Shown: piece by piece, positions 14,910-59,622 of the stretch
Position numbering within the stretch: the first letter of the stretch is position 1
Layout of the letters: each line of letters opens with the position of its first letter
NCBI RefSeq assembly: GCF_044324785.1
Contig: NZ_CP172128.1
DNA: 64,000 nucleotides
From: Escherichia coli
GTDB taxonomy: Bacteria; Pseudomonadota; Gammaproteobacteria; Enterobacterales; Enterobacteriaceae
Strand: one strand, 5' to 3'
The notes under the pieces: generated by a model
Databases searched by the model: none
The model's input: the letters and a program-made list of their open reading frames with translations, nothing else
What the model was told of the DNA's origin: nothing
Position numbers and translations under genes: made by a program

Positions 14910-15085
14910 TCAGCCCTGTTTAAACCCCGGCTTGCCGTTTTTGGCTCGCCATTCCTTCACTTCTTTTACGATACCTTCAGGACTGTCCTCACGGTCATCC
15001 CTTGGATAATAAATAAGATCAGAACCATCAGGGTGTTCAGCTAATCGACGAAATTCATCCACTAATTTATCGTCATCAGCCTCAG
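14910..15085 (-). pseudogene. colicin E-type DNase immunity protein (Im family), 3' fragment truncated by IS1
   Basis: minus-strand translation ...[41 protein letters not shown] matches the conserved C-terminus of Im2/Im7/Im9-type proteins; ORF enters IS1 end. Confidence 0.5.
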
Positions 15086-15853
15086 GGTGATGCTGCCAAC
15101 TTACTGATTTAGTATATGATGGTGTTTTTGAGGTGCTCCAGTGGCTTCTGTTTCTATCAGCTGTCCCTCCTGTTCAGCTACTGACGGGGTGGTGCGTAAC
15201 GGCAAAAGCACCGCCGGACATCAGCGCTATCTCTGCTCTCACTGCCGTAAAACATGGCAACTGCAGTTCACTTACACCGCTTCTCAACCCGGTACGCACC
15301 AGAAAATCATTGATATGGCCATGAATGGCGTTGGATGCCGGGCAACAGCCCGCATTATGGGCGTTGTCCTCAACACGATTTTACGTCACTTAAAAAACTC
15401 AGGCCGCAGTCGGTAACCTCGCGCATACAGCCGGGCAGTGACGTCATCGTCTGCGCGGAAATGGACGAACAGTGGGGCTATGTCGGGGCTAAATCGCGCC
15501 AGCGCTGGCTGTTTTACGCGTATGACAGGCTCCGGAAGACGGTTGTTGCGCACGTATTCGGTGAACGCACTATGGCGACGCTGGGGCGTCTTATGAGCCT
15601 GCTGTCACCCTTTGACGTGGTGATATGGATGACGGATGGCTGGCCGCTGTATGAATCCCGCCTGAAGGGAAAGCTGCACGTAATCAGCAAGCGATATACG
15701 CAGCGAATTGAGCGGCATAACCTGAATCTGAGGCAGCACCTGGCACGGCTGGGACGGAAGTCGCTGTCGTTCTCAAAATCGGTGGAGCTGCATGACAAAG
15801 TCATCGGGCATTATCTGAACATAAAACACTATCAATAAGTTGGAGTCATTACC
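15086..15853 (+). mobile_element. insAB: IS1 copy 1 (insA 15141-15416, insB 15335-15838)
   Basis: 768 bp, ends GGTGATGCTGCCAACTTACTG ... GTTGGAGTCATTACC; no flanking 9-bp duplication. Confidence 0.9.
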
Positions 15854-18673: not shown

Positions 18674-19441
18674 GGTAATGACTCCAACTTATTGATAGTG
18701 TTTTATGTTCAGATAATGCCCGATGACTTTGTCATGCAGCTCCACCGATTTTGAGAACGACAGCGACTTCCGTCCCAGCCGTGCCAGGTGCTGCCTCAGA
18801 TTCAGGTTATGCCGCTCAATTCGCTGCGTATATCGCTTGCTGATTACGTGCAGCTTTCCCTTCAGGCGGGATTCATACAGCGGCCAGCCATCCGTCATCC
18901 ATATCACCACGTCAAAGGGTGACAGCAGGCTCATAAGACGCCCCAGCGTCGCCATAGTGCGTTCACCGAATACGTGCGCAACAACCGTCTTCCGGAGCCT
19001 GTCATACGCGTAAAACAGCCAGCGCTGGCGCGATTTAGCCCCGACATAGCCCCACTGTTCGTCCATTTCCGCGCAGACGATGACGTCACTGCCCGGCTGT
19101 ATGCGCGAGGTTACCGACTGCGGCCTGAGTTTTTTAAGTGACGTAAAATCGTGTTGAGGACAACGCCCATAATGCGGGCTGTTGCCCGGCATCCAACGCC
19201 ATTCATGGCCATATCAATGATTTTCTGGTGCGTACCGGGTTGAGAAGCGGTGTAAGTGAACTGCAGTTGCCATGTTTTACGGCAGTGAGAGCAGAGATAG
19301 CGCTGATGTCCGGCGGTGCTTTTGCCGTTACGCACCACCCCGTCAGTAGCTGAACAGGAGGGACAGCTGATAGAAACAGAAGCCACTGGAGCACCTCAAA
19401 AACACCATCATATACTAAATCAGTAAGTTGGCAGCATCACC
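18674..19441 (-). mobile_element. insAB: IS1 copy 2 (inverted relative to copy 1)
   Basis: 768 bp; insA/insB ORFs identical to copy 1; no flanking duplication. Confidence 0.9.
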
Positions 19442-19616
19442 CAAGGGGCCAGTCTAGCAGATTATGGTGCGCAGTTATACAACAGCAGTAATGAGGAGTC
19501 TACTATTTCTCTTGTTATGCCAGATGCAATTGAATGGAACGGAAAGAATACGCCAAGACGGCAATACATGATAAAATATATTGCCGTATTTAAATATTAA
19601 AATTTATTTTTGTAGA

Positions 19617-20024
19617 TTATCTGAATTTTCGGTGACCTTCAAGTTTTATATCGTTCATTTTATCCAGAGACTCACGTAATGATTCTATATCCCCGTCCTC
19701 AACTTTCTTTTTTGCAATATTGATTTCATGTTGTAGTTTTTTTAACTCTTCCTTATAACTATCTACAGAAACTTTATCATTAACATCTATCTTTTCAGGA
19801 ATAATATTCATAGAAGAATCTACAGATTTATCCATCATTTCAAGAGCATTTAATAGTGATGATTTATCATTGGAAGATTGTAGAATACTCATACTTTTGG
19901 CAAGAGACTGCATGTTTTTATCCAGGCCGGAAGCCAAAGATACGTTGCTGAGAGATAAAAAAATAGCTAGTACAGCACCTGAGAAAAATACCTTTTGTTT
20001 TTTCATTAATATATTCCTGTTCAA
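19617..20024 (-). CDS. cytochrome b562 family protein
   Basis: signal peptide plus four-helix-bundle-sized protein ending ...HRKFR, like the ...HQKYR C-terminus of E. coli cytochrome b562; alternative start at Met7. Confidence 0.55.
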   Translation of the reverse strand: MNRNILMKKQKVFFSGAVLAIFLSLSNVSLASGLDKNMQSLAKSMSILQSSNDKSSLLNALEMMDKSVDSSMNIIPEKIDVNDKVSVDSYKEELKKLQHEINIAKKKVEDGDIESLRESLDKMNDIKLEGHRKFR

Positions 20025-20204
20025 AGTTGATTATAGTTATGTCAATTTAAGTTTATTATTATGATTTTTTATTTTTGTACTATGAATCTCCTGTATGCTT
20101 ATATGTGCAGAAAATCTCATTTTATCAAGAAGAATATCAAATTTTCTCCGATACTTCTACATACTCCATCATTCATGCTCCTTTTATCCGTGCACCGTAA
20201 AACC

Positions 20205-20338
20205 CCGTCCTTCAGCGGGGATATAAGGCGCTGTTTTCCACCTAACCAGGTGTCTGCTGCTATTCAATGTATTGGCGGATGACGGATGCCGCCCGTTGAA
20301 GCAGGAACCCTCGTCCTTAGGGCGTGGAGGATGTCAAA
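20205..20338 (+). repeat. 134-bp direct repeat, copy 1
   Basis: ~97% identical to 28891-29024; contains short hairpins (CCCCG..CGGGG, GGCGG..CCGCC). Confidence 0.7.
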
Positions 20339-20439
20339 ATGAAAACTTGTGGTATGAATCAATCCATTCATCATCCTTTCGGATCATTGCATTCAGTATA
20401 ACGCTGGAAGAGCCTGGCAATATCACTGTATTGATGGTA

Positions 20440-21330
20440 TTACGCCATGAATTGCTTATTTCTTAAATACGACATGCACCACAGACAGGCTTTTCCTATA
20501 CCATCGGAACGAGCGGCAAGAAATAACTTGGTGGCGTGTTTATGTTCGCGCATTGGCTTTTTAAGCAATTTACCTCTGTTCAATAACGGCAATGCCAGAT
20601 GATGTGGAATATAACCAATACCGACGTTTTGTTCTATTAAGCTGATTGCCATGGCGAAGTCAGGAACAAAAATAGGTTTTTGTCCTTCCAACAACCAGGC
20701 TTGCATTGGGGGGAAGTTAACGGAGGTATCCCGGATACAAACCGCAGGATAATGACGCAATTCACTGTTTTCTAATGGATTCCGCTTCACTGCCAGTGGA
20801 TGAAGTGGGCTGACGACAAAATCCCATTCTATTTGTCCGACCGGTTCGCTAATGATGCCTTCACTGCTTGGTACTGCATGAGGAGCACCGTAGACCAGAT
20901 CAGCACGTTTACTGTACAGCGCATCCCAGCAGCCGTTGTATACTTCAATATCTACCGTCAGTGTTGTTGATGTGAATTGCCGTTCAAAATCTTGAATAAA
21001 TGACACCAGAAAATCACCAGGTATAATATTGTTCACCGCAATTGTCAGTTCACGCTCAATACCATCGTGAATCAGCACTGTGTTGCGCTTTAATGCATCC
21101 AGATCGCGGAGAATATTTTTGCTATGTTCGATGAAGTAACTCCCCGCCGGAGATAATTCAATATATCGTCCCTTACGAATGAACAGTTCAACGCCCAGGG
21201 TTTCTTCCGCTTTCTTCAGGGTGTAACTGATAGTAGAAGGGACTTTATTTAACTGTTCGGCTGCGGTGGTGATGTTCTGGTGTCTGGCGACCAGATGAAT
21301 AATTCGAATCGTTTCGTCTGAGATGAACAT
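20440..21330 (-). CDS. LysR-family transcriptional regulator
   Basis: 296 aa; N-terminal HTH (IRIIHLVARHQNITTAAEQLNKVPSTISYTLKKAEE) and LysR substrate-binding domain. Confidence 0.8.
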   Translation of the reverse strand: MFISDETIRIIHLVARHQNITTAAEQLNKVPSTISYTLKKAEETLGVELFIRKGRYIELSPAGSYFIEHSKNILRDLDALKRNTVLIHDGIERELTIAVNNIIPGDFLVSFIQDFERQFTSTTLTVDIEVYNGCWDALYSKRADLVYGAPHAVPSSEGIISEPVGQIEWDFVVSPLHPLAVKRNPLENSELRHYPAVCIRDTSVNFPPMQAWLLEGQKPIFVPDFAMAISLIEQNVGIGYIPHHLALPLLNRGKLLKKPMREHKHATKLFLAARSDGIGKACLWCMSYLRNKQFMA

Positions 21331-21407
21331 AAGGCTCCCTGGTCAGTGGTAAAGTGGCTGAATCTCTCCAGATTCAGCCGTAATCATTGCCTGAGTATAC
21401 CCAGGAA

Positions 21408-22628
21408 TTAGCGGTGTTGACTTGCCCGACTGAGAATCGCATACGCGATACATGCCACCAGAATGGAGTCAACTGAAGGGATCGTCGTCAGGGTGAATAA
21501 GCCTTTTACGGTCATAAAGCCAACCGCTGTGCCTGTGATCCATGCAGCGAATGTCAGTACTTTAACCTGTGACTCCTGAGTTAACACCGACTCTTGATAG
21601 CCATTACGGCGATAAAGGAAAAAGTCAGCGATATAAATTCCGGCAACTGGGGGAGTCGCGATACCCAGGAACAGCAGAAACGGAATAAACCACGCCATAA
21701 TATCCATACTGCCTACGATGGCGGAAAGGATACCCAGCGCAACGGTAATCTGCCATTTGGGAAAGCGGCTAAGCAGTGTGGAAACTACCAACGTCCCCTG
21801 GAACATATTGCCCGCATTACCGGTGACGCAGGCGAATATCAGCAACAGTGCTGCAGGCATAACCGCACCGAATACTGCCATAGCATTCAGTAAAGAGCCC
21901 TGGCCGCTAATGGCACTCGGCGTTGCACCCGCCCAGTATAGCAGAGGGTAGGCAACCAGAAACGTCATACCTGCGGCAATCAGAGCATGTTTTCGGTTAT
22001 GTACAAAACTACCGAAGTCGGGAAGTGTAGCAACCAGAACAATAATAGTGCCAACAACGGTGGAAACGGCGACACCTGTACTCATCTCCGCTATCGCTGC
22101 TGGCGCTGATACTTCGGTATGGGTTGCCACATAGAGTATATAACACAGCACCAGTGCGATAACCGGCACGGCGACCTGGGCAACTTTGCCCAGAATGGAA
22201 AAACCAAAGGCCGTAGAGGCGACAAAAATGACACAACCAGCTGCCACTAACAGTGCCAGTGGCGCTTCAATCCCATTCTGCGCCAGTAAGTCATGCACCG
22301 AATGACCAAACATATTAGCGGTAACGGCAATCCAGCCGAACAGACTTATAGCCATCAAAATATTAATGGCGATGGCCCCTTTTTCGCCAAATGAATATTT
22401 CACAATACCGTATGTTGGCAGGCGGGCTTTTTCTCCCACACTAATGGTGATGGCTGAAAGTAAGGTCAGAATGACGCCGCCTAATAGTACGACGCTAATT
22501 AAACTACCACTGGAAAGTTGATTGCCGAGGCTTGAGGATGACAACAGCACAGGTGTGACGGCAATACCCAGCAAAATCATGGTAATACGCAATCCTGATG
22601 CCGTATTCATATTATCTTCTTTACGCAT
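21408..22628 (-). CDS. NCS1-type (cytosine/purine/allantoin-like) permease, putative
   Basis: 406 aa polytopic membrane protein with a transporter-like profile. Confidence 0.5.
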   Translation of the reverse strand: MRKEDNMNTASGLRITMILLGIAVTPVLLSSSSLGNQLSSGSLISVVLLGGVILTLLSAITISVGEKARLPTYGIVKYSFGEKGAIAINILMAISLFGWIAVTANMFGHSVHDLLAQNGIEAPLALLVAAGCVIFVASTAFGFSILGKVAQVAVPVIALVLCYILYVATHTEVSAPAAIAEMSTGVAVSTVVGTIIVLVATLPDFGSFVHNRKHALIAAGMTFLVAYPLLYWAGATPSAISGQGSLLNAMAVFGAVMPAALLLIFACVTGNAGNMFQGTLVVSTLLSRFPKWQITVALGILSAIVGSMDIMAWFIPFLLFLGIATPPVAGIYIADFFLYRRNGYQESVLTQESQVKVLTFAAWITGTAVGFMTVKGLFTLTTIPSVDSILVACIAYAILSRASQHR

Positions 22629-22653
22629 AATATGTTTCCTTTATAAATGCGCG

Positions 22654-23043
22654 TTACATCGTGTGAAAATTCCCGGTGTATTTGCGCCAGCCCCCCAGTG
22701 CTGTAATCTCCTTCTGGCCTTCAGTCAGCCAGCTTTCTGCCAGTACGCCCAGTACTTCGCTACCATCGGCAAGTTTGATTTTTCCAATGGTCAGGCCTTC
22801 GGGTTCGTTCATTAACAGTTCGGCAAAACTGGCCAGAGGCAGTTGCCAGATTTCTACGTCTACGTGTGCTCCTCCTTCATTCACGCGGATCATTCCGGGA
22901 TGACGATCATTAATACTCCATAACCGGTAATGGGCGTCAGTTCGGTCTTCACGGACAAAAATACCGCCCGCTTTTTGCATATTTGGGTTGAGTTCCAGAC
23001 CGCGCATCAGCGTTCCGTTAACGGCTAAAAGTGTTGTAGTCAT
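22654..23043 (-). CDS. AIG2/gamma-glutamylcyclotransferase-like protein
   Basis: 129 aa with GGCT-like fold signature at the N-terminus; family assignment tentative. Confidence 0.4.
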   Translation of the reverse strand: MTTTLLAVNGTLMRGLELNPNMQKAGGIFVREDRTDAHYRLWSINDRHPGMIRVNEGGAHVDVEIWQLPLASFAELLMNEPEGLTIGKIKLADGSEVLGVLAESWLTEGQKEITALGGWRKYTGNFHTM

Positions 23044-23059
23044 TGTGTTCTCCAGAGAA

Positions 23060-24016
23060 TTAAAGGGTTATCCATGTTCCGCTCTGATGTGCCAGGGCTG
23101 CTTTTATGGTTTGCGGTGAAGTAATCAGTCCGCTGGCCTGTTTGCCTTGTTGCTGGCTGGCATTGATGAAATCAATAATGGCTTCCACTTTGGGTTGCAT
23201 ACTGCCGACACCAAACTGACCTTCCTGCAACAGCGTTTGAGCTTCGTAGACGCTGATAGCGTCGAGCCATTGTTGTTGTGGTGTACCAAAGTTAATCGCC
23301 ACTTTTTCTACACCGGTGGGGATCACCAGCAGATCAGCGCCTAACTGACTGGCGAGCAATGCGGAGGCCAGGTCTTTATCGATCACGGCTTCCACACCTT
23401 TCAGTTGTTGCCCGTCTCGCACCACAGGTATACCGCCGCCGCCGCAGGCTATAACCAGATATCCCTGGCGCACAAGGTGAGCGATGGTGTGGTGCTCAAT
23501 AATTTCCAGTGGCGCAGGAGAGGGAACTGTACGCCGCCAACCACGCCCGGCGTCCTCCATCAGCGTCCAGCCGAGTTGTTGTTGGCATTGTTGTGCTGTT
23601 TCTTCATCAAGAAACGCGCCAATCGGTTTACTGGGGCTGGCGAAAGCATCGTCATATGGGCTGACTCGCGTTTGTGTCACCAGGGTAATTACCGGTTTGT
23701 TTATGCCACGGCGAGCCAATTCGTTATGCAGCGCTTTCTGGAACATGTATCCAATGGCGCCTTGGGTATCACCCACGGCGTAATCCAGAGGAACCGGAGA
23801 AACTTCGTTACTGGCAAGTTCAGAGCGGCGCAGAATAAAGCCTACCTGCGGGCCATTACCGTGGGTTAGCACCAGGTCCCATCCGGCTTCAACCATATCA
23901 ACGATATGCTGCACGCTTTCCATTACTGCAACATATTGATCGGGAATACTATTGCGTTTATCGTCCTGAATGAGCGCATTGCCGCCAACCGCGACGACAG
24001 CCAGTGGCTTAACCAT
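23060..24016 (-). CDS. carbamate kinase-like protein (YahI/YbcF-type)
   Basis: AVVAVGGNAL ... THGNGPQVG amino-acid-kinase motifs; start taken at MVKPLAVVAVGG rather than the upstream ORF-track start. Confidence 0.75.
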   Translation of the reverse strand: MVKPLAVVAVGGNALIQDDKRNSIPDQYVAVMESVQHIVDMVEAGWDLVLTHGNGPQVGFILRRSELASNEVSPVPLDYAVGDTQGAIGYMFQKALHNELARRGINKPVITLVTQTRVSPYDDAFASPSKPIGAFLDEETAQQCQQQLGWTLMEDAGRGWRRTVPSPAPLEIIEHHTIAHLVRQGYLVIACGGGGIPVVRDGQQLKGVEAVIDKDLASALLASQLGADLLVIPTGVEKVAINFGTPQQQWLDAISVYEAQTLLQEGQFGVGSMQPKVEAIIDFINASQQQGKQASGLITSPQTIKAALAHQSGTWITL

Positions 24017-25433
24017 GATGGTTCTCCTTTGCGACGATCTCCGCCAGTTCACGTACAGCAGCGACAAAACAGGCCATCGGTGCAGTGGTGATCCCGGCAC
24101 CAATTTGTCCGACTCCCGCTTGTTTGTGGGCGATACCCGTATTGATGACCGGTAAAATGCCACGATCGGTCACTTTACACGCATCAATACCTGCTGCGGT
24201 GGGGGCAAAATTGAGGGCTGGAAGTGTAAATGCGGGGTTACCGCCGAGGGTGATTGCCTGCATCCGACGGCTGTTATTGGTGGCATCGGCAGGGGTGCCT
24301 CCCACAAATTTAACAATCGCCGGAGATGACGCCATCGCGAAGCCACCCACACCTGCGGTTTCAGTAATTGCGCTATCACCCAGGTCAGCAGCGGCGTCGT
24401 CAACGCCAAATCCGGGGAAGAACAGACCTTCAACTGCATTGGCAGGAGCCTGGAACCAGCGATCGCCAGTACCGGAAAGCCGAATACCAAAATTCACCCC
24501 GTTACGCGCCATCACCGTAACCATTGAACTGAACGGTACATTGGCGGCGGCATCCATCATTGCTTTACAGGCAGCCATCGACAAATTGAGGAAGAAGTGA
24601 TCGTTACCTGTGATAAATGCCACGACGCGCTGGATATGTTCCTGTGGAAGAGAGCAGGCCAGCAATGCCGGGAGCAGGCGCTTAATCAGCAAACCGGTAG
24701 CGGCAGCATTGCGGTTATGAACTTCATCCCCCATATGCAGCGCCTGCGCCATTAATGGCTTGAGTTCCAGCTCGCCGTGTTGTGCGATTGCTGCTTTCAT
24801 GGCCGGCGCCAGTTCATCACGCATCCAGGCCAGACGATTGAGAACTTCATCGTTATTGGCACCAAAACGGAGAACCTTACCCAGACCCTCATTGAAATTG
24901 CTAAAAGTACGATGGCCGTTGGTTTTGTTTTCCACCACCCATAATGGCATAGACGGGCTGATAATGCCTGCCATTGGTCCAACCGCGTGATAATGATGAC
25001 AAGGAGCAAGGTCGATTTCGCCTGCGTTTATCTGGTTTTCTGCGTCTTTCTGGCTTGTAGCCCAGCCTTCGTACAGCATGGCACCAATAATCGCCCCTTT
25101 TACCGGACCACACATATCTTCCCAGGCAATCGGTGGACCAGAGTGTAAAATGCGTTTTTGTTCAGCCATTTCGGGGATGGCTTCTTTAGCGAGCATGACA
25201 TCCACCAACACGGGCTGTGCTTCGAGATAACGTGTCATGGCGATTTGGTTGGCACTTTCTACCAGTGGATGGCGTAGTAATGACGCCAGAACCAAACCGG
25301 TGTCAATATCACCTTGTGCTGGCGGCTGCCAGTTGAGGGATATAGCATGCCCTCCTGCATGTTGAATATTGTCAGCAAAACTGTGTAGTCCCGCGTTCAC
25401 GACCTTCAAAGGCTGATTAAATAAGGTATTCAT
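24009..25433 (-). CDS. DUF1116 protein (YahG/YlbE-like)
   Basis: ~474 aa, conserved partner of FdrA-like and DUF2877 proteins; start taken at MNTLFNQPL. Confidence 0.65.
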   Translation of the reverse strand: MNTLFNQPLKVVNAGLHSFADNIQHAGGHAISLNWQPPAQGDIDTGLVLASLLRHPLVESANQIAMTRYLEAQPVLVDVMLAKEAIPEMAEQKRILHSGPPIAWEDMCGPVKGAIIGAMLYEGWATSQKDAENQINAGEIDLAPCHHYHAVGPMAGIISPSMPLWVVENKTNGHRTFSNFNEGLGKVLRFGANNDEVLNRLAWMRDELAPAMKAAIAQHGELELKPLMAQALHMGDEVHNRNAAATGLLIKRLLPALLACSLPQEHIQRVVAFITGNDHFFLNLSMAACKAMMDAAANVPFSSMVTVMARNGVNFGIRLSGTGDRWFQAPANAVEGLFFPGFGVDDAAADLGDSAITETAGVGGFAMASSPAIVKFVGGTPADATNNSRRMQAITLGGNPAFTLPALNFAPTAAGIDACKVTDRGILPVINTGIAHKQAGVGQIGAGITTAPMACFVAAVRELAEIVAKENHHG

Positions 25434-26989
25434 GCATTTAGCTCCTTTTTCTGCAACTGAGTCTGTGCAACGGTGCTGGCCCATAGCGCCGCCTGTGCAT
25501 TGCTGTTGGCAATGATGACGCCTGCATTTTGTAGTGAGCTTATCTGCTGACTGCGTATTTGCGGATCAGCTTCTGTTCCGCAAACGTGGGCAATCAGCAA
25601 CGGTGCATTATTCATGTCGATGTGTGAAAGTTGGTCCAGTAATTCGCTGACAGGCGTAGCGGAGGTGCCATAACCAAGTACAAGGTCGAATAACACAACG
25701 GCAGTATGTGAGTCGTTGAGTTCGTTGAGCAGACGTTGATTGCGCAGAGTCGGGTCGATCATTGGATGCGGTTTGCCACGGGTGAAATCATCGTCCCCCA
25801 TATCAATCAGTGTATGATCTTCACTTTGCCAGATATTTGCCAGAGCACGATTACCCGCAACTGGCGTATTGGAGGCGGCATGGAATCCCTTTTGTTGGCA
25901 GATAAGCTGAGCTTCGTAACAGAAGGTTCCTCCGGCGAAAACACCGCGTATCGCCTGGCGATGGACTGGCAGACTTTGGCAGGCGTTTTGTAACATTGTG
26001 AGATCGTCGCAGGAAACCTCGTTCTCGACAGCCGGAAGTGGCTGATCATTCAGTAACGCCACAGCGATGTCGGCGGCGCTGGCAAGTGTGGTGGCGGCAG
26101 TGATATTGGGACGTGCCAGATCATGCGGATTCGCCCCGAGGAAATTCACCACCACGGGTTTTCCACAAGCCTCGGCGCGCTCCAGAATAGTCCGGGCAAC
26201 GATCGGTGAAGGCGGTTTTGAAATAAGAACAATCACGTGAGTTTCATCGTCTTGTGCCAGCGCATCTAAAGCAAAGAGCATTGATATTCCACCAATCTCT
26301 TCACTGAGATCATGTCCGCCTGTTCCCAACGCCTGAGAAATACCCGCTCCGAGCTGGTCGATTCGGCAAGTCACTTCCTGTAGCCCGGTGCCTGACGCGC
26401 CAATAACACCAATTGCTCCGCGTTTCACCACATTAGCGAAGCCTAACGGAATGCCGTTAACAATGGCGGTTCCACAGTCAGGTCCCATTACGATACGCTG
26501 ACGTTCTCGGGCAAGCGTTTTGATGTATTTTTCCTGCCCGATACTGACGTTATCGCTGAACATCATCACGTTCATTCCGAGGTTTAACGCTTTAATTGCT
26601 TCGGCGGCGGCGTAGTCTCCCGGTACAGAAATGAGTGCCAGGTTGGCTTCGGGTTCAGCTTCCAGTGCCATTTCCAGGCTGACCTTTTCCGGTGATTTAA
26701 TGCCACAATCCGTTTCATCATCGGGTTTGCTGGTCAGACGTTGCTGGGCCAGTAGCAGTGCTTCATTGCAAATATCTTCTTCACCCATGACTGCAATCAC
26801 TAAATCATTGGGACTGGCGTTGATTTCGTTACCCAGACCCGCATCGCGCAATTGCTCGAGATTATTGGGTGTTCCCATGACGACCGAGGCCTGTTGAATA
26901 CCGGGCAACTTGCTGATTTGCGCGGAAATCTGCATCAGAGAAACTGAGTCCTGATAAAGATTACTGAAAACTTTATATTTAACTTTCAT
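25430..26989 (-). CDS. FdrA-like protein (YahF-type, succinyl-CoA-synthetase-alpha-like fold)
   Basis: ~519 aa, CoA-ligase/NAD-binding Rossmann-like N-domain; start taken at MKVKYKVF. Confidence 0.65.
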   Translation of the reverse strand: MKVKYKVFSNLYQDSVSLMQISAQISKLPGIQQASVVMGTPNNLEQLRDAGLGNEINASPNDLVIAVMGEEDICNEALLLAQQRLTSKPDDETDCGIKSPEKVSLEMALEAEPEANLALISVPGDYAAAEAIKALNLGMNVMMFSDNVSIGQEKYIKTLARERQRIVMGPDCGTAIVNGIPLGFANVVKRGAIGVIGASGTGLQEVTCRIDQLGAGISQALGTGGHDLSEEIGGISMLFALDALAQDDETHVIVLISKPPSPIVARTILERAEACGKPVVVNFLGANPHDLARPNITAATTLASAADIAVALLNDQPLPAVENEVSCDDLTMLQNACQSLPVHRQAIRGVFAGGTFCYEAQLICQQKGFHAASNTPVAGNRALANIWQSEDHTLIDMGDDDFTRGKPHPMIDPTLRNQRLLNELNDSHTAVVLFDLVLGYGTSATPVSELLDQLSHIDMNNAPLLIAHVCGTEADPQIRSQQISSLQNAGVIIANSNAQAALWASTVAQTQLQKKELNA

Positions 26990-27083
26990 GCTGTTACGCC
27001 TGTTCCATTCCGCCCGATAGCAAAATTCGGGCAAAGCATCCCCGTGTAGCCCCATAAACGGGCTACGGGAGAAAAGGTTGAAA

Positions 27084-27944
27084 TCAATTCATGGTGTTCA
27101 GGGTTCGAAATCCATGCAGCATTCCTGCAAGGCAATTTACTCCTGATGTTGCGCCAAATTGCATGATCTGTTCTGTACAGGATGCGATTGTCATTGCCGA
27201 TGCGCTCCCAACCAGTTGTGCGAGTAACCGGCAAATCGGTTCTGAAAAATGTCCCTGAAGCGCACGTTGCAGATAATGACGACTTATATCCGTGGTGTTG
27301 TGTGCATGTTGTTCAATTGCCTTCTGCAACCTGTATTGATGATTGGCAAGTGGTGCAGGGAGTTGCCATAACCAGAGGGCTGCCAGATAGCCCAGCAAAT
27401 AGTCATCTCCATCGGGCGTTAAGCCTTTACCAAAGCCGATCAGTTGGGGTACCTGGCGTTCCAGCGCATCTGGATGTTCCATAATATCTAATCCCTGGTG
27501 CGTGAGACTATCCGGCAGGTGCAATGTGCTTTGAACGTTATGCTCCAGACAAAATAAAAGCCGTTGCGATGCTATCGTGGGGTAGTGCTGGAAAACCAAA
27601 GGCAATGCCTCAAGAGTCAGCATTCCCCCCACAAATGGCGACTGCCAGAGCGTTGCGTTATCGAGCGCCACACAAAATCGAGGTGTCCGCAGTAAGCCTG
27701 GGGTTAACTGAATGGGATCTGAATGGGCAATCTCTCTTCGCCAGTCCCAACATTCAGGTAGCCAGACTCTGGCAGCATCAGGGAGATTCAGATACGTTTG
27801 CGCACACAACAGAGTGATGAATGTTCCCGCGTCTGAATACAGATTTACCGCATGTTTAAAAGCGCTATGTAGACGTAAATCTTGCGTTTCATTCTGCGGG
27901 AAAAGATATCCTAACGACGATGCACAAAGCGTAACCTGTACCAT
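27084..27944 (-). CDS. DUF2877 protein (YahE/YlbF-like)
   Basis: 286 aa; conserved third member of the FdrA/DUF1116/DUF2877 trio. Confidence 0.6.
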   Translation of the reverse strand: MVQVTLCASSLGYLFPQNETQDLRLHSAFKHAVNLYSDAGTFITLLCAQTYLNLPDAARVWLPECWDWRREIAHSDPIQLTPGLLRTPRFCVALDNATLWQSPFVGGMLTLEALPLVFQHYPTIASQRLLFCLEHNVQSTLHLPDSLTHQGLDIMEHPDALERQVPQLIGFGKGLTPDGDDYLLGYLAALWLWQLPAPLANHQYRLQKAIEQHAHNTTDISRHYLQRALQGHFSEPICRLLAQLVGSASAMTIASCTEQIMQFGATSGVNCLAGMLHGFRTLNTMN

Positions 27945-27949
27945 CGGCG

Positions 27950-28618
27950 TTAGCCTTCCAGACCTGCAATAATGGCTTTGGAATCAGTAACCCAACCGAA
28001 AATGGCACCTTGTGCTTTGATCATCTCAAGGGCGTATTTCTGGAATTCCGGGAAATAGGAGCCAACGCAATCTTCCGGTATGATGCATTCATAGCCACGG
28101 TCATTTGCTTCACGCACGGTGGTGGTTACGCAAACTTCGGTAGTCACGCCACAAACAATAAGTGTCTTGATACCACGCTTTTGCAAAATCAGATGTAAGT
28201 CGGTTTGATAAAAAGCGCCTTTACCGGGTTTATCAATCACAGGTTCGCCTGTCACTGGATACAGTTCAGGAATGATGTCATGACCTGCCTCACCCCTGAC
28301 CAGAATGCGTCCCATCGGTCCTGGTTCACCAATAAAGGTTTTTCCGCCGCGCGTCAGTTTGGCTGATGGGCAGTCGCTTAAGTCTTCACGATGGCCTTCA
28401 CGGGTATGAATAACCATAATTCCTTTTTGACGTGCGGCTACCAGAACTTCTTTACATGGTGCGATAGCCGTGCGAACCAGTGAAACATCATTACCCAATG
28501 CTTCTCCAAACCCTCCTGCTTCGACAAAATCACGTTGCATGTCTATCATGATCAGTGCCGTTGTGCACGGATCAAAGGGTAATTCAAAGGGTTGAGCCTG
28601 AAAAATGGATATCGTCAT
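27950..28618 (-). CDS. isochorismatase-family cysteine hydrolase
   Basis: ALIMIDMQRDF ... catalytic-Cys region IVCGVTTEVCV typical of isochorismatase/N-carbamoylsarcosine amidase family; start at MTISIF with GGAG RBS. Confidence 0.75.
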   Translation of the reverse strand: MTISIFQAQPFELPFDPCTTALIMIDMQRDFVEAGGFGEALGNDVSLVRTAIAPCKEVLVAARQKGIMVIHTREGHREDLSDCPSAKLTRGGKTFIGEPGPMGRILVRGEAGHDIIPELYPVTGEPVIDKPGKGAFYQTDLHLILQKRGIKTLIVCGVTTEVCVTTTVREANDRGYECIIPEDCVGSYFPEFQKYALEMIKAQGAIFGWVTDSKAIIAGLEG

Positions 28619-28890
28619 GACAAATCTCCAGTATATATTGTTTACTGGTGACGAGTATTCAATATAAAGGTGACCCACAACAGAAAAAAAAGTTGTTTTA
28701 CAGGAGCGAATATTTTTGAGGTGTCTAAATGTTGTTATGAAAAATGTGATTTATATCAATCTATGACATTCATAAACAACTTTTTTCAAATGTTTATTTG
28801 TTTAATATTAAAAAAATTGTCGATATATTGTGATATTAATCATCCTATTTGGCAGGGATAGTGCTGATTTTTAACAAATACCCCTTACAT

Positions 28891-29024
28891 CCGTCCTTCA
28901 ACGGGGATATAAAGCGCTGTTTTCCACCTAACCAGGTGTCTGCTGCTATTCAATGTATTGGCGGATGACGGATGCCGCCCGTTGAAGCAGGAACCCACGT
29001 CCTTAGGGCGTGGAGGATGTCAAA
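28891..29024 (+). repeat. 134-bp direct repeat, copy 2
   Basis: ~97% identical to 20205-20338, same orientation. Confidence 0.7.
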
Positions 29025-29076
29025 TACCCGCCCTCATTGAGAGAGAAGCTACGAGATTTTCGCTAAGGGACACAGG

Positions 29077-30560
29077 TCATACGGGAGATGGCGGTTCCCA
29101 GCGTTTATCCTGCTCCGGCGGAGGCAGTGATGCGTCATCGTTGCTGTTCGCCGCGATATAATCGCGGTAGTAGCGTTCACTTCCTTCCCGGTGATGATCC
29201 ACATCCGGTCGTGTAATCCTGTAGTCTTCGTGACCGGTACGGCCTGTCACATTATGCCAGGCAACCATTTCAGCAAAGACCTGGTTAAATTGTTTGTCGT
29301 TTCCTTCTGGTTCAAAGCCCATTCTGGGATCACGCTCAAACAATACAGGTGCAATCAAATCCAGTTTATCTGCCAGCGCATTGCGGTCATGGTGATTACG
29401 GAAAACAACCCTGTCACCATAATCCGTACAGACAAACTCTCCCGTCCGACGGTCACGGAAACGAACACTCCCGTTCTTCTGCAAACGGGCCTCGAGATCA
29501 CCGGTATTACCGTATACCGGCGTTCCGCCCGGTTCACAAAGCACGACACAGCGGTCTGTTGTTGTTGTGCGTGACTTGTCTTTACGGCGATCGCGATAAT
29601 CCCAGCCTCTCAACTGCGATACAGCAGCCCTGTCTCCCTGAGCAGCCTGAATTTCGACCCACTGACGGTAAGAGGGTGGATACCACTTCCCGTCAGCAAT
29701 AAGTTTCTGTCGCTCATCCCTGATGTCTTCTTTCAGCCTGATCAACGCCTGCATTCGCTGAACTTCTGCAATGTGATAATGCAGCTTACGTAATGCCGGA
29801 TCATCGTACTGCGCACGAATGTGTGACTTCCGCAGACGGCATGCCTGATGAATTTCCCGACAACGTTCCCCATTACGCAGATCTGGTTTACGCCATTGTT
29901 CACGCCATGCCAGATAGCGGGCACGCAGGTCAGCACGGGCCTCAGCTCTGGCTTCACGTCGCTGCCGGCGCAGCATTGGGTCACGTTTACTGCTGACCCC
30001 GTACCTGTCACTGACAGCCAGCTCCGGGTTATAGCGACTTTCAGGTTGCACCCTGTCAAACAAATCTGCTGGGGCACTCACAAAAGGTCCGGCCTGTGGC
30101 TCTGCACGCCCCAGAGTCAGATCAGGATGAATGCTGCTGGCCTTCACCGGCGTTTGCTCATGATTAAAGGCATCAACGACAACAAGCCCGTGATGTTGTT
30201 TCTGTAGCATCAGTCCCTGTTGTGCAAACAGCTCATGACAACGCTGCCAGGTAAACTCACCCTGTGTGATCATTTCTTCAATCTGAGGGCTACAATGGCT
30301 GATGCTGTATCCCCACAGACTTTCTTTATCAGAAAACAGTTCGCGTTTGATAGCCCCCTGCGGCCCCGTGCCTGTACGCATACGGTGCCATTCTTTATCG
30401 GTCGCAGGACAGCTCTCCATACGACGACCACGGAAGCGTTCTGTTGGCGTAACCTGGCGGAAAATATCTGTTGGTACAGGCTGCCAGCCACCATCGAGTT
30501 GATTCACATTGTCGAGCGTCAGCAGTGACCATACGCTGTCAGCACGAACGGGAGTCTGGT
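29077..30560 (-). pseudogene. NikB-like MOBP relaxase, C-terminal ~490 codons only
   Basis: N-terminal part of the translation (..TPVRADSVWSL..QPVPTDIF..) aligns with the C-terminal region of the nikB at the window end; relaxase catalytic domain absent. Confidence 0.55.
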
Positions 30561-30613
30561 TATGATATTTTTCGGATCCCGGTGAAAAAAGAGAGAAACA
30601 TGCAGATACCATG

Positions 30614-31899: not shown

Positions 31900-33208
31900 T
31901 GAACCGCCCCGGGAATCCTGGAGACTAAACTCCCTGAGAAAGAGGTAAACAGAATGACTAAAAATACTCGTTTTTCCCCCGAAGTCCGTCAGAGGGCGAT
32001 TCGTATGGTTCTGGAAAGTCAGGGCGAATATGACTCACAGTGGGCGGCAATTTGTTCCATTGCCCCAAAGATTGGCTGTACACCGGAGACTCTGCGTGTC
32101 TGGGTACGCCAGCATGAGCGGGATACCGGAGGCGGTGATGGCGGGCTCACCACCGCTGAACGTCAGCGTCTGAAAGAGCTGGAACGTGAAAATCGTGAAC
32201 GCGCCGCAGTAACGATATCCTTCGCCAGGCTTCCGCTTATTTTGCGAAGGCGGAGTTCGACCGCCTCTGGAAAAAGTGATGCCACTGCTGGATAAGCTGC
32301 GTAAGCTGTACGGGGTCGGACGGGTATGCAGTGAACTACATATTGCCCCGTCAACGTATTACCACTGTCAGCAACAGCGACATCATCCTGATAAACGCAG
32401 TGCCCGTGCGCAGCGCGATGACTGGCTGAAGAAAGAGATACTGCGCGTATACGATGGGAATCATCAGGTATATGGTGTGCGTAAAGTCTGGCGTCAGTTG
32501 TTACGGGAAGGAATCAGGGTAGCCAGATGTACAGTGGCGCGCCTCATGGCGGTTATGGGACTTGCCGGTGTTCTCCGGGGTAAAAAGGTCCGCACTACCG
32601 TCAGCCGGAAAGCCGTTGCCGCAGGCGACCGCGTAAACCGTCAGTTTGTGGCAGAACGTCCTGACCAGTTGTGGGTGGCTGATTTTACTTACGTCAGCAC
32701 ATGGCAGGGGGTCGTCTATGTGGCGTTCATCATTGATGTGTTTGCCGGATACATCGTGGGGTGGCGGGTCTCATCGTCTATGGAAACGACATTCGTGCTG
32801 GATGCTCTGGAGCAGGCGTTATGGGCCCGTCGACCGTCCGGCACAGTCCATCACAGTGATAAAGGTTCTCAGTATGTATCGCTGGCCTACACACAGCGGC
32901 TTAAGGAAGCCGGATTACTGGCATCAACAGGAAGTACTGGTGACTCGTATGACAACGCGATGGCGGAGAGCATCAATGGCCTTTACAAAGCGGAGGTAAT
33001 ACACCGTAAGAGCTGGAAAAACCGGACAGAAGTGGAGCTGGCCACACTCACGTGGGTGGACTGGTATAACAATCGACGATTGCTGGAAAGGCTGGGCCAT
33101 ATCCCACCGGCAGAAGCAGAAAAAGCTTATTATGCTTCCATCGGAAACGATGATCTGGCAGCCTGAGTTCACAGATAAAACACTCTCCAGGAAACCCGGG
33201 GCGGTTCA
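31900..33208 (+). mobile_element. IS3-family insertion sequence (orfA 31954-32295, orfB 32276-33166)
   Basis: terminal inverted repeats TGAACCGCCCCGGGAATCCTGG / CCAGGAAACCCGGGGCGGTTCA; orfB with DDE-type transposase hallmarks; orfA/orfB overlap. Confidence 0.8.
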
Positions 33209-40900: not shown

Positions 40901-41668
40901 GGTGATGCTGCCAACTTACTGATTTAGTGTATGATGGTGTTTTTGAGGTGCTCCAGTGGCTTCTGTTTCTATCAGCTGTCCCTCCTGTTCAGCTACTGAC
41001 GGGGTGGTGCGTAACGGCAAAAGCACCGCCGGACATCAGCGCTATCTCTGCTCTCACTGCCGTAAAACATGGCAACTGCAGTTCACTTACACCGCTTCTC
41101 AACCCGGTACGCACCAGAAAATCATTGATATGGCCATGAATGGCGTTGGATGCCGGGCAACAGCCCGCATTATGGGCGTTGGCCTCAACACGATTTTACG
41201 TCACTTAAAAAACTCAGGCCGCAGTCGGTAACCTCGCGCATACAGCCGGGCAGTGACGTCATCGTCTGCGCGGAAATGGACGAACAGTGGGGCTATGTCG
41301 GGGCTAAATCGCGCCAGCGCTGGCTGTTTTACGCGTATGACAGGCTCCGGAAGACGGTTGTTGCGCACGTATTCGGTGAACGCACTATGGCGACGCTGGG
41401 GCGTCTTATGAGCCTGCTGTCACCCTTTGACGTGGTGATATGGATGACGGATGGCTGGCCGCTGTATGAATCCCGCCTGAAGGGAAAGCTGCACGTAATC
41501 AGCAAGCGATATACGCAGCGAATTGAGCGGCATAACCTGAATCTGAGGCAGCACCTGGCACGGCTGGGACGGAAGTCGCTGTCGTTCTCAAAATCGGTGG
41601 AGCTGCATGACAAAGTCATCGGGCATTATCTGAACATAAAACACTATCAATAAGTTGGAGTCATTACC
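40901..41668 (+). mobile_element. insAB: IS1 copy 3, inserted in cba
   Basis: 768 bp; 9-bp target duplication AACTATTAC (40892-40900 and 41669-41677); minor aa differences from copies 1/2. Confidence 0.9.
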
Positions 41669-49194: not shown

Positions 49195-49551
49195 GATGTC
49201 GCCGGCGGCTCCGCTTTACCCGGCCATGCGGGGCATGGCCTTGTGGGTTTTCAACTCTGTAGCCTCAGCGTCGTGTGCGGGCTGTGCCGTGCCTCCATCG
49301 TAGCCGGGCTTCTGCGGGCGGGTTGCAAGGTAAGGTGAACCGCTGCGGTCACCCGGTCCCTCCTTCCCGTCTGCCGTGATTTTCCGGTCGTTCACCCGCT
49401 CAGATTTCGCGGTCTCACCCTCCAACTCCCGTCAGCCGTGTGCGTCAGGCTGCGGCTTCCCTTGCGCCCTTGCAACCCTGCAGGCCCGGCAAAGATGGAG
49501 GCACGGCACCGCCCGGTGTCGCGGAATATGTGAACAACGGAGGAAAACATC
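49195..49551 (+). repeat. GC-rich structured leading-region repeat, type B copy 1 (Frpo/ssi-like)
   Basis: ~360 bp nearly identical to 56148-56507; ends at klcA start. Confidence 0.6.
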
Positions 49552-49977
49552 ATGCAATATGCGAAACCTGTCACTCTGAATGTTGAAGAGTGCGACCGTC
49601 TCTCCTTTCTGCCTTACCTGTTTGGCAACGATTTTCTGTATGCCGAGGCGTATGTGTACGCGCTGGCGCAAAAAATGATGCCGGAATATCAGGGAGGCTT
49701 CTGGCACTTCATCCGCCTGCCGGACGGTGGCGGTTACATGATGCCGGATGGCGACCGTTTCCACATGGTGAACGGTGCAAACTGGTTTGACCGTACCGTG
49801 AGTGCTGATGCCTGCGGCATCATTCTGACTTCCCTTGTGATTAACCGCCAGTTGTGGCTGTACCACGACAGCGGGGATGCGGGACTGACACACCTTTACC
49901 GGATGCGCGATGCGCAGTTGTGGAGCCACATCGAATTTCACCCCGAATGCAATGCGATTTACGCGGCACTGGACTGA
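49552..49977 (+). CDS. klcA: KlcA/ArdB-family antirestriction protein
   Basis: 141 aa, size and sequence character of KlcA/ArdB. Confidence 0.65.
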
Positions 49978-50023
49978 TTAACGGACGGGGCGGCGATGCC
50001 GCCCCTGTAAAGGAGACGAGAAC

Positions 50024-50443
50024 ATGTACTGTACTGTTAAAGAAATTATCCGCGAAGTGCTGGATACAGACGTGCCGGACAGTGAATGCGTTTTTGCTGT
50101 GGTGCTGACCCGTGGGGATGTACGTCACATAGCCCGGGACTGGAACCTGACAGACGATGAGCTGGAAACCGTCATGCAGCGGCTGGACGATGCCTTTGAG
50201 CATGGTGCTGATGTCAGCATTGTTCACGACGTTGTTCGTGAACTGATGGAGGAAAAGCGCGTAAACCGTCTTGTAACAGTCCCTGCGGTGCTGCTGGAAA
50301 AAGTGATGGTGATGGCTGGTAGTGAAATTTATCGCCTCCATGCTGTAGGGAGCGAGAACGGGGGCGACGGTGACGCATTTGTCAGGGAAGAACGTGAGAT
50401 TATGCGGTTGATGCGTCAGGCGCTGGACGGGGAGAACGGGTAA
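50024..50443 (+). CDS. hypothetical leading-region protein
   Basis: 139-aa ORF, acidic; not recognised. Confidence 0.45.
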   Translation: MYCTVKEIIREVLDTDVPDSECVFAVVLTRGDVRHIARDWNLTDDELETVMQRLDDAFEHGADVSIVHDVVRELMEEKRVNRLVTVPAVLLEKVMVMAGSEIYRLHAVGSENGGDGDAFVREEREIMRLMRQALDGENG

Positions 50444-50634
50444 TGAATATCAGCACAGAAACCCGCGAAATTCTGCGCAATTACAAAGCCGTGATTAATG
50501 CACGACGTCGTGAGATGGGGCAGAAACCGCTCACCACCGCGCAGATTGTTGATGAAATCTGCGATTTTGTGGCAAATCAGCAGGCTGTTTTCCTCGGCGG
50601 TCACTACATCCTTCAGGGCAGCAGAAACAGGTGA
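50443..50634 (+). CDS. hypothetical small protein
   Basis: 63-aa ORF with start overlapping upstream stop. Confidence 0.35.
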   Translation: MNISTETREILRNYKAVINARRREMGQKPLTTAQIVDEICDFVANQQAVFLGGHYILQGSRNR

Positions 50635-50835
50635 TACAGGGCAGGCGGTGGAGGCCGCCTGTCAGCCCGCGCGAAAACCCCTGGCAGGCTGACGCCTGCC
50701 GGAAATGCGGGGTGCAGCGCCTGCGGCGCTGCCGGCCCGGCTTTCCGGTCAGAAGATAGTGTATGGCTGTATGCCAGGAACAGGTGCGATATTCCGTGAC
50801 ACTGTCACTGTTTCTGGCTGTCTTTTATTGCGCCC

Positions 50836-51403
50836 ACTTCGGCTCCCGGCTGCCTGGCGGCATCCGGTCGTCAGGCCCGACTACGACAGGCAGCTGCTTG
50901 CGCACCCGCCAGTCTCCGCCGAACCCGCTGGCGCGGTTTCGGGCTGTCGCTACGGTCCGATGCGTGAAAAACCGGGCTTGCAGCGACCGTTCCGGTCGCG
51001 CCGCCTCTGTCGCGCCGTGACCTGCGCTCCCTGCACACCTGACGGTGTGTGAGGAAACTGCGCCTGATGGCGCAGCAGTCTTCCCTCCTGCCGCCACCTC
51101 TGCGGCCTGTTTCCCGCTGTGGACTTTCCGGGGGGCAGACGTAACCCCCTCCCGTTCCATCTGTCCAGGGTGAGATGCACCGGCCACAAAATTTTTAGCC
51201 ATGAACCCGGCTAAAAATTTTGCGTCCGCCCCCGGACAGCTGTCCCGTGAGGCGGTAAACGGGCCCCCATCGGAAAGGTCCACTGCGGGGAGAAACCCCT
51301 GTGAAGTGGACGGCAGGAGGAGCTTTCGCTCCTCTGAAGGGGCACATGAACGTCCCGTCGCCGGTATCCGGTTTATCTCACATCTTTCAGTCAGGAGGTT
51401 CTT
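50836..51403 (+). repeat. GC-rich structured leading-region repeat, type A copy 1 (Frpo/ssi-like)
   Basis: homologous to 57192-57739 and 60527-60897; ends at ssb start. Confidence 0.6.
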
Positions 51404-56147: not shown

Positions 56148-56507
56148 AGGACGTCGCCGGCGGCTCCGCTTTTACCCGGCCATGCGGGGCATGGCCTTGT
56201 GGGTTTTCAGGTATGAAGCCATCGTGTCGTGTGCGGGCTGTGCCGTGCCTCCATCGTAGCCGGGCTTCTGCGGGCGGGATGCAAAGGTACGCTTCGCCGC
56301 TGCGGTCACCCGGTCCCTCCTTCCCGTCTGCCGTGATTTTCCGGTCGTTCACCCGCTCAGATTTCGCGGTCTCACCCTCCAACTCCCGTCAGCCGTGCGC
56401 GTCGGGCTGCGGCTTTCCTTGCGCCCTTGCATCCCTGCAGGCCCGGCAAGGATGGAGGCACGGCACCGCCCGGTGCCGCAGAACATGTGACTATGGAGGA
56501 TTCGGGA
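56148..56507 (+). repeat. GC-rich structured leading-region repeat, type B copy 2 (Frpo/ssi-like)
   Basis: nearly identical to 49195-49551; ends at ardA start. Confidence 0.6.
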
Positions 56508-57008
56508 ATGTCTGTTGTTGCACCTGCTGTATACGTTGGAACCTGGCACAAATACAACTGCGGAAGCATCGCCGGACGCTGGTTTGACCTGACCACGTTT
56601 GATGATGAACGCGATTTTTTCGCCGCCTGCCGTGCCCTTCACCAGGATGAAACCGATCCGGAACTGATGTTTCAGGATTATGAGGGATTCCCGGGGAATA
56701 TGGCCTCTGAATGTCATATCAACTGGGCCTGGGTTGAAGGCTTCCGCCGGGCGCGGGATGAAGGCTGCGAAGAGGCTTATCGTCTCTGGGTGGATGATAC
56801 CGGTGAGACGGATTTTGACACCTTCCGCGATGCCTGGTGGGGCGAGGCTGACAGTGAGGAGGCTTTTGCGGTTGAGTTCGCCAGTGATACCGGCCTGCTG
56901 GCTGGCGTGCCGGAGACGGTGGCGCTCTATTTTGACTATGAGGCGTATGCGCGGGATTTATTCCTGGACTCCTTCACCTTTATTGACGGTCATGTGTTCC
57001 GTCGGTGA
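56508..57008 (+). CDS. ardA: ArdA antirestriction protein (DNA mimic)
   Basis: 166 aa from MSVVAPAVYVGTWHKYNCGSIAGRWFDL.., highly acidic. Confidence 0.85.
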   Translation: MSVVAPAVYVGTWHKYNCGSIAGRWFDLTTFDDERDFFAACRALHQDETDPELMFQDYEGFPGNMASECHINWAWVEGFRRARDEGCEEAYRLWVDDTGETDFDTFRDAWWGEADSEEAFAVEFASDTGLLAGVPETVALYFDYEAYARDLFLDSFTFIDGHVFRR

Positions 57009-57191
57009 TTTACTCCCCCGCTCCGGCGGGGGTATGGCCTGCCGGGCCGCCGGAAAACCCTGGCAGGCTTACGCCTGCCTGAAATGCAGGAGGGCCGCGC
57101 CTGCGGCGCTGCCCTTCCTGCCCGTCATGGTGTGAGGCATTTTTCTGTTATGTCGTTTCTGTTGTTCTGATTTCCGGAGGCGGGGACACCC

Positions 57192-59560: not shown

Positions 59561-59571
59561 TGAGAACCACA

Positions 59572-59598: not shown

Positions 59599-59622
59599 GT
59601 CAGCAGGAGCAGAGCAAACAGC

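Follow-up and report, generated by a model that had tools for sequence, protein, structure and literature searches.

Direct repeats bordering a captured gene module on Escherichia coli plasmids: probable miniatures of IS609 that would allow loss of the module by homologous recombination

Escherichia coli contig NZ_CP172128.1 carries, within the 64,000-nt stretch analyzed here (the window, to which all coordinates refer), a pair of short direct repeats that border an 8.55-kb block of genes of chromosomal type. Large conjugative plasmids of E. coli match the region at 99–100% identity; most of them come from poultry or extra-intestinal infections, and they include bacteriocin-gene IncF plasmids (L001, NZ_CP025329) and an IncK2/Z plasmid (L010). 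The other sequences fetched for comparison, likewise designated by L-numbers, are an IncI plasmid (L002), Klebsiella plasmids (L003), two E. coli IS609 loci (L004 and L005), the chromosome NZ_AP045771 (L006), plasmid pTB-nb2 (L009) and metagenome contigs (L013–L017). On the strength of these comparisons, we consider it very likely that each repeat is a gene-less miniature of IS609, an insertion sequence (IS) of the IS200/IS605 family, of the kind known as palindrome-associated transposable elements (PATEs) or similar to miniature inverted-repeat transposable elements (MITEs), and that homologous recombination between the two copies deletes the genes in between.

A repeat search of the window returned a 134-nt direct repeat in two copies, 20205–20338 and 28891–29024, with a spacing of 8,686 nt and 98% identity. 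The original prediction of same-orientation repeats of about 97% identity at these positions was borne out by a base-by-base comparison, in which 131 of the 134 positions were identical and copies 1 and 2 differed at 20215 (G/A), 20227 (G/A) and 20311 (T/A). Similarity between the copies ends abruptly on either side. The blastn E value of the pair, 7e-58, excludes a chance origin. The pair is present in about 80 plasmids of PLSDB and about 140 complete E. coli assemblies; its recurrence in dozens of independent complete plasmids rules out an assembly artefact. The final base of the repeat (A, 20338 and 29024) belongs to the flank and matches by chance, the element itself ending with TCAA (20334–20337 and 29020–29023). 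At copy 1, a further 17 nt to the left match the left end of IS609, so that the element there is longer than the repeat and spans 20188–20337.

Most of the interval between the copies is occupied by a captured chromosomal module (20446–28882, minus strand), which is 93.5–94.6% identical to a gene cluster found at 1,521 chromosomal places in E. coli, with uropathogenic E. coli (UPEC) 536, BL21 and E2348/69 among the carriers. In UPEC 536 the cluster lies between a gene for a MurR/RpiR-family regulator and ysgA, and no IS is annotated nearby. According to profile searches, the module encodes a LysR-family regulator (PunR/AllS-like), an NCS1 permease, a small protein resembling the C-terminal domain of allophanate hydrolase, carbamate kinase, and DUF1116, FdrA and DUF2877 proteins. 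It also holds a gene for a BiuH-like cysteine hydrolase, similar to biuret amidohydrolase, and the 3′ tip of ysgA. Judged by family names only, this gene set suggests the catabolism of a nitrogen-rich compound. The chromosome-type homology runs out within the 3′ end of a gene on either side, the LysR regulator gene on the left and ysgA on the right, so that the module is bounded by illegitimate joints at both borders. At the left joint, the LysR-family gene takes its last codons and its stop codon from 46 nt (20400–20445) that have no homology to the chromosomal cluster or to IS110; with this foreign C-terminus the protein has 296 amino acids on the plasmid, compared to 301 in UPEC 536.

Outward from the module on the left, these 46 nt are followed by an IS110 remnant, copy 1, a cytochrome b562 gene and IS1. 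The remnant (20338–20399, minus strand) is the 3′ end of an IS110-family transposase gene and abuts the right end of copy 1. It is 90–94% identical to the last 62 nt or so of full copies of such (“RNA-guided”) transposase genes, which occur in about 49 E. coli records and 38 plasmids. The cytochrome b562 gene (19620–20006, minus strand) always travels with copy 1, and the left flank was found in only 85 plasmids, all with this island context. The cytochrome b562 protein had no close relative in the species-representative genomes, and the left flank could thus not be traced to a source. On the right, the order outward is an 8-nt filler (28883–28890, with AT at 28889–28890 in the window), a truncated copy 2, 60 nt (29024–29083) that occur in island-bearing records only and have no homology to IncI1 plasmids, and a 1.48-kb 3′ fragment of an IncI1-type nikB relaxase gene (29084–30566, minus strand). 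This fragment is 98–98.6% identical to nikB of more than 1,000 IncI1 plasmids and is annotated in pTB-nb2 as incomplete nikB.

The repeats had been described as immediately flanking the gene cluster. They do lie at its borders, but contact is only approximate: copy 1 is found 102 nt past the LysR stop codon, 108 nt from the start of the chromosome-type homology at 20446, and copy 2 begins 8 nt past the end of that homology. The idea that the repeats define or mobilize the module finds no support in the nature of these borders, which are illegitimate junctions, or in the position of copy 1 in an IS110 remnant outside the captured segment. The repeats sit at the borders amid other IS debris without defining what was captured.

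The repeat unit carries no annotation in any match among the records examined. Where the original prediction had recognized no IS end, the unit proved to consist wholly of ends of IS609, the sole IS200/IS605-family element of E. coli K-12 (PMC5009759). Its first 93 nt match at 91–94% identity in 4,387 of 5,426 complete E. coli genomes, always beside a gene that bears the annotation “IS200/IS605 family transposase”; few genomes have the full unit, which was found in 145 records from 138 of them. Intact IS609 copies have tnpA and the insQ/TnpB gene between the same ends that are found in the unit. One such copy (L004) lies between yeaR/DUF1869 and yeaQ. The K-12-type IS609 (L005) lies between ydcL and ydcO; here, tnpA is a pseudogene and its neighbor insQ is annotated as “RNA-guided endonuclease InsQ/TnpB”.

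In blastn alignments with the intact IS609 of L004, copy 1 matched in three pieces, namely nt 5–104 of IS609 at 20190–20287 (93% identity), nt 1657–1679 at 20288–20310 (95.7%) and nt 1711–1749 at 20300–20337 (90%). Copy 2 mapped onto IS609 equivalently, and for the unit overall the matching pieces of IS609 are nt 5–104, 1657–1681 and 1711–1749, at 90–96% identity. The unit is a fusion of about 100 nt of the IS609 left end and about 50 nt of its right end. As read from the alignments, a deletion of about 1.55 kb took tnpA and tnpB from the ancestor of the unit, and a second deletion, of 41 nt, is located between two CCAC repeats of the right end. The minus strand of the unit retains the last 15 codons of tnpA (tblastn), and these surviving codons show that the unit descends from a full element. 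Neither tnpA nor tnpB was detected in the window by blastn or tblastn with IS609, and the unit itself has neither gene. Other reduced relatives exist: a separate derivative of IS609 of about 300 bp without tnpA is present in the IncI plasmid L002, and a related left end precedes a TnpB-only element in the Klebsiella plasmids (L003). Among the options considered in the original prediction, that of a miniature non-autonomous element is the one upheld by this structure, and the unit is a previously undescribed IS609 derivative of a familiar element type. It is probably distinct from MITEEc1, a MITE often listed by MobileElementFinder, judging from prevalence, since the latter appears in many published tables of E. 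coli isolates and the unit in 138 of 5,426 genomes.

Elements of the IS200/IS605 family have no inverted repeats, make no target duplication, possess a hairpin near each end and always have their left end 3′ of an element-specific tetra- or pentanucleotide (PMC5027513). Copy 1 shows this arrangement. It is the complete 150-bp miniature (20188–20337, plus strand), with a left-end part at 20188–20287 and a right-end part at 20288–20337 that terminates in TCAA. The tetranucleotide TTAT (20184–20187, plus strand) stands directly 5′ of its left end and is the putative target and left cleavage site of IS609. This tetranucleotide stands immediately before the left end in each of five independent contexts (copy 1, L002, L003, L004 and L005), and the right end finishes with TCAA in every case examined (both copies, L002, L004 and L005). 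No target duplication is seen in the flanks of copy 1. Copy 2 is a 5′-truncated miniature of 133 bp (28891–29023, plus strand) with an intact right end and terminal TCAA. It is without the first 17 nt of the left end (CCGTGCACCGTAAAACC), which comprise the cleavage-proximal segment, the guide position (as in IS608) and 2 bp of the hairpin stem. End homology, absence of genes and the TCAA terminus identify the unit as an IS609-derived non-autonomous element; the TTAT context is found at copy 1 only, the first 17 nt being absent from copy 2.

The end hairpins, to which TnpA binds in this family, were folded as single-stranded DNA. In IS609 the hairpins of the two ends are near-identical, with CCCCGTCC-TTCA-GGGCGGGG at the left end (−14.1 kcal/mol, z = −3.0) and CCACGTCC-TTCA-GGGCGTGG at the right end (−7.7 kcal/mol). 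The left-end hairpin of copy 1 (CCCCG-N8-CGGGG, 20203–20220, plus strand) is a weakened form of the former, with a stem of 5 bp instead of 8 and two G lost (−6.2 kcal/mol, z = −0.4). Its right-end hairpin (CCTCGTCC-TTA-GGGCGTGG, 20309–20327, plus strand) has lost one loop base, and its stem is broken by the T at 20311 (−3.3 kcal/mol). At copy 2 the left-end hairpin is truncated (−2.5 kcal/mol), and the right-end hairpin lacks one loop base and retains its stem (−6.5 kcal/mol). The hairpins of the unit are recognizable yet degraded, the right end of copy 2 being the sole intact one. Relative to IS609, the ends of the unit are decaying and not conserved.

The junction preceding copy 2 is dimorphic at 28889–28890, with AT in the window and in L010 and CC in L001 (near position 20694), L014, L015 and L017. 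In the CC variant the repeat measures 136 nt and copy 2 begins exactly at the foot of the hairpin. We considered this junction as a product of TnpA cleavage and rejected that origin, since the break falls 15–17 nt inside the left end and not at TTAT. At the other copy, TTTAT runs uninterrupted into AATGAAAAC in the IS110 relatives, and the junction with the IS110 remnant would fit an insertion 3′ of TTAT that overlapped the stop codon of the IS110-family gene.

We propose the following course of events. An IS609 miniature would have formed by fusion of the two ends with loss of tnpA, tnpB and 41 nt of the right end. Copy 1 represents the whole element in the arrangement usual for the family, 3′ of TTAT, ending with TCAA and without target duplication. 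Copy 2 would have lost its first 17 nt at an illegitimate joint to a gene block captured from an Escherichia chromosome. The resulting direct homology of 134–136 bp would act passively, letting host homologous recombination loop out the 8.55-kb module, a reaction that would be expected to depend on RecA. The loop-out would take the module plus one repeat unit, 8,686 bp in total, and leave one hybrid copy behind.

The predicted product exists in nature. A query for the recombinant junction, in which one unit was placed between 405 nt from the left and 476 nt from the right flank, was searched in PLSDB and in the E. coli genomes. It was matched in one piece, at 100% coverage and 99.7% identity, by four plasmids of chicken E. 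coli (NZ_CP033633, NZ_CP119729, NZ_CP119733 and NZ_CP119749); all remaining records matched it only as two separate places. In pTB-nb2, the cytochrome b562 gene is followed by one unit and then by the nikB fragment, and the module is absent. The single unit has a complete left end and carries the copy-1 alleles at the first two variable sites (G,G) and the copy-2 allele at the third (A). Between these sites lies an interval of 83 identical nt (20228–20310, plus strand, equivalent to 28914–28996), the putative crossover zone, across which the alleles switch in both pTB-nb2 and the metagenome contig L013. It is by far the longest identical stretch between the two copies, and a G,G,A chimera is the product expected from a crossover within it. 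That the crossover falls in the longest identical interval argues for homologous rather than site-specific recombination. In L013, which holds the same one-copy chimera, homology of the right flank to the window stops at 29678 and gives way to sequence from elsewhere in the window; this contig may therefore represent a different plasmid arrangement. The original prediction had foreseen that homologous recombination could delete the module precisely, with exactly one repeat remaining; this structure, in which the single copy is chimeric, is present in four plasmids and in one metagenome contig.

It is very probable that the one-copy state arose by deletion of the module. Over 765 bp of left flank, pTB-nb2 differs from the window by 3 single-nucleotide polymorphisms (SNPs) and from the two-copy plasmid L010 by 4, whereas the two-copy plasmid L001 differs from the window by 8. 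Under roughly clock-like change, these distances place pTB-nb2 inside the diversity of the two-copy plasmids. The opposite direction would have the one-copy plasmids as ancestral, with a circular module carrying a truncated miniature (A,A,T) integrating by homologous recombination into a resident miniature (G,G,A). A crossover in the 83-nt core would then produce both copies with the alleles they have, G,G,T in copy 1 and A,A,A in copy 2, with no need for mutation, and the single copy does have the IS609-ancestral base at all three variable sites. We nevertheless regard integration as unlikely. It requires a circle that must already have been excised from an older two-copy locus, which only moves the problem back. 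Moreover, few plasmids are in the one-copy state (4 of about 85), one-copy pTB-nb2 is nearer to the window than two-copy L001 is, and the two-copy plasmids cover several backbones, including IncF ColV-type and IncK2/Z. Mutation after duplication was also considered as the source of the three differences between the copies and was discarded, since recombination in either direction explains the alleles without it.

Several points weigh against the explanation we favor, IS609 miniatures followed by homologous deletion. As G,G,A is also the product of the reverse reaction and the IS609-ancestral state at all three sites, the alleles cannot settle the direction. A four-taxon analysis of the flank contained singleton sites only and gave an unrooted star tree, as integration would equally allow, which leaves the pairwise distances as the sole guide to direction and makes deletion a preference and not a proof. 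Few SNPs underlie the flank tree, and plasmids are subject to recombination. No true empty site of copy 1, in which the left flank would be joined directly to the right flank, was found. The IS110 paralogues match TTTAT and the right flank only; as the left flank is not homologous beyond TTTAT, they were rejected as a full empty site and represent a partial one. It is from architecture only that we infer transposition of this miniature. It also counts against the explanation that it does not account for the two-copy arrangement, in which a miniature that was seen nowhere else lies at both borders of a captured segment. Finally, the left-end hairpin may have played a role in making the right-hand junction, which in the CC variant falls exactly at the hairpin foot.

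In another reading, copy 1 supplies the left end and copy 2 the right end of one 8.8-kb single-strand transposon of IS609 type (20188–29023), which chromosomal IS609 TnpA moved to this site in trans. The outer ends are indeed the better preserved ones, copy 1 retaining a 5-bp hairpin together with TTAT and the guide position, and copy 2 an intact right hairpin together with TCAA, and many E. coli have an apparently intact IS609 tnpA. We hold this reading to be very improbable. All records with the left flank or the unit had one and the same context, and the segment was never found at a second locus, as a composite transposon would be; no record or contig searched joins the left and right flanks without the element between them; the flanks themselves, with the cytochrome b562 gene and the nikB fragment, are unrelated DNAs; and 3 of the 8 base pairs are missing from the stem of the left-end hairpin. 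The efficiency of IS608 excision drops with element length, and 8.8 kb would be very unfavorable. There is a very slight chance that the outer ends might still be recognized by chromosomal IS609 TnpA, making 20188–29023 a cargo-carrying “peel and paste” transposon. In a variant of the same reading, the left-end hairpin itself might have directed the illegitimate joint that captured the chromosomal DNA. If the cargo transposon were real, IS200/IS605 miniatures could move metabolic operons.

The repeats could also be functional cis elements, for instance a structured small RNA, a guide (omega) RNA of TnpB in truncated form, a terminator, an insulator, or an att site on which a site-specific recombinase would act; the att-like site and the small structured RNA were among the options of the original prediction. 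Both copies sit between consecutive minus-strand genes, and a permissive Rfam search gave a weak match to HgcC at 20256–20350 (plus strand; E = 0.058), whose 17.7 bits fall short of the gathering score of 50. A relationship between HgcC-like RNAs and the guide RNAs of TnpB may exist. No Rfam family matched the unit at the gathering threshold, the permissive search yielding sub-threshold matches only. Folding of both strands revealed no exceptional stability (z = −1.2 and −1.1 as RNA, −1.3 as DNA), and a structured element under selection was rejected on these grounds. No terminator-like site was found in the unit, and the one promoter-like match was at or below shuffle expectation. As a separate observation, the intact IS609 of L004 gave a sub-threshold Rfam match to RAGATH-18 at the 3′ end of tnpB (5124–5167 of L004, plus strand, E = 0.0055); this match and that to HgcC may be traces of the TnpB guide RNA. 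A cis function for the repeats is very hard to credit, as the hairpins are degraded relative to IS609, the opposite of conservation, the roughly 50 nt of right end that are left, with their internal 41-nt deletion, are too little for a guide RNA scaffold, which when complete spans the 3′ end of tnpB and the right end and is followed by a guide, and the crossover lies in the longest identical interval, as would be expected of homologous rather than site-specific recombination.

The distribution of the miniature agrees with a single island. Across the E. coli genomes, PLSDB, the species representatives and the metagenomes, it was seen at these two positions only and always within this island. 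Among the E. coli records, those with the full unit and those that match the flank junction of the island at 99% or more are equally numerous, 145 in each case. A pattern scan of 100,044 species-representative genomes, one per species, gave no match to the miniature, and the metagenome scan gave five contigs that all had the same flanks and thus no new context. Copies at unrelated sites, which would have indicated mobility, were not found in the collections searched. The degraded hairpins, the absence of tnpA from the window and the lack of any other location suggest that both copies are inert as transposons today, and we infer that the miniature is immobile at present.

The segment from the cytochrome b562 gene through copy 1 is also found in an E. 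coli chromosome (L006, NZ_AP045771, at 2.62 Mb), where IS1 cuts it 69 nt past the right end; this part of the island has moved to the chromosome. The window holds three copies of a 768–769-bp sequence, 99–100% identical, at 15085–15853, 18674–19442 and 40901–41668, the counterparts of which are annotated as IS1A in L009 and L010. Two of the three form an inverted pair around a 2.8-kb segment immediately to the left of the cytochrome b562 gene. In the metagenome contig L016, what we take to be an IS1 end is separated from the left end of copy 1 by 8 nt. A second, paralogous cluster with genes for DUF1116, FdrA, DUF2877, an ankyrin-repeat protein and LysR is present in NZ_CP025329 (L001, 1–5268), a few kilobases left of the cytochrome b562 gene.

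Among known systems, the unit is closest to IS609 itself (insP/insQ in K-12, also named yncK/ydcM), with which it shares the left end of about 100 nt at 91–94% identity, the right end of about 50 nt, TTAT, TCAA and the paired hairpins. It differs from IS609 in that it has no tnpA or tnpB, has lost 41 nt more of the right end, has shortened or mismatched hairpin stems and is 5′-truncated in one copy; it is non-autonomous and probably immobile. The K-12 IS609 never transposed in mutation-accumulation lines (PMC5009759). Gene-less IS200/IS605 derivatives, the PATEs, have been described in Haloquadratum walsbyi and Geobacillus stearothermophilus (PMC3119063, PMC10055086). PATEs and the unit alike consist of left and right ends only, have no coding capacity and rely on TnpA in trans. 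The published PATEs, however, are multi-copy and are said often to keep the TnpB guide RNA, whereas the unit exists as two copies in one island without a sign of recent movement, and its right end is too short for a full guide RNA scaffold. With IS608 of Helicobacter pylori, the “peel and paste” element that serves as the mechanistic paradigm, the unit has in common a position 3′ of a fixed tetranucleotide (TTAC for IS608, TTAT here), the TCAA end, subterminal hairpins and the absence of target duplication (PMC5027513), but no sequence homology.

Outside the island, the only match at the Rfam gathering threshold in the whole window was an ALIL pseudoknot (RF01497, 107.8 bits) at 32234–32350, the frameshift site of an IS3-family insertion sequence. 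A 12-nt tandem repeat of about 8 units (CAGCAGGGAATA-like) at 59339–59466 lies within larger direct repeats of about 150 nt and 48 nt (59323–59886). Long direct repeats of 83–96% identity at 49215–51334, 56171–57686 and 60525–60773, among which a 73-nt unit occurs three times, suggest that genes or elements have been duplicated.

Direct IS repeats on plasmids, such as those of IS1 or IS26, act as portable homology by which a module is lost or gained as a circle. Compared to deletions of the IS1/IS26 type, the homology at the present locus measures only 134–136 bp, stems from a miniature element and involves no transposase. Loss of the module through the repeats is in this sense a textbook consequence of dispersed IS homology, and the repeat is an ordinary mobile-element scar that reveals no new mechanism; it contributes a case from E. 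coli to the few IS200/IS605 miniatures on record. Its recognition aids the annotation of the plasmids concerned and the reading of the presence or absence of the carbamate kinase/FdrA/DUF1116 cluster in comparative genomics. A conspicuous structured repeat in a widespread plasmid family of poultry-associated and extra-intestinal pathogenic E. coli (ColV-type IncF and IncK2/Z) would thus be the fossil of a known IS, and 134 bp of such a fossil would suffice to make an 8.55-kb catabolic module losable and, in principle, regainable, an outcome that natural plasmids document.

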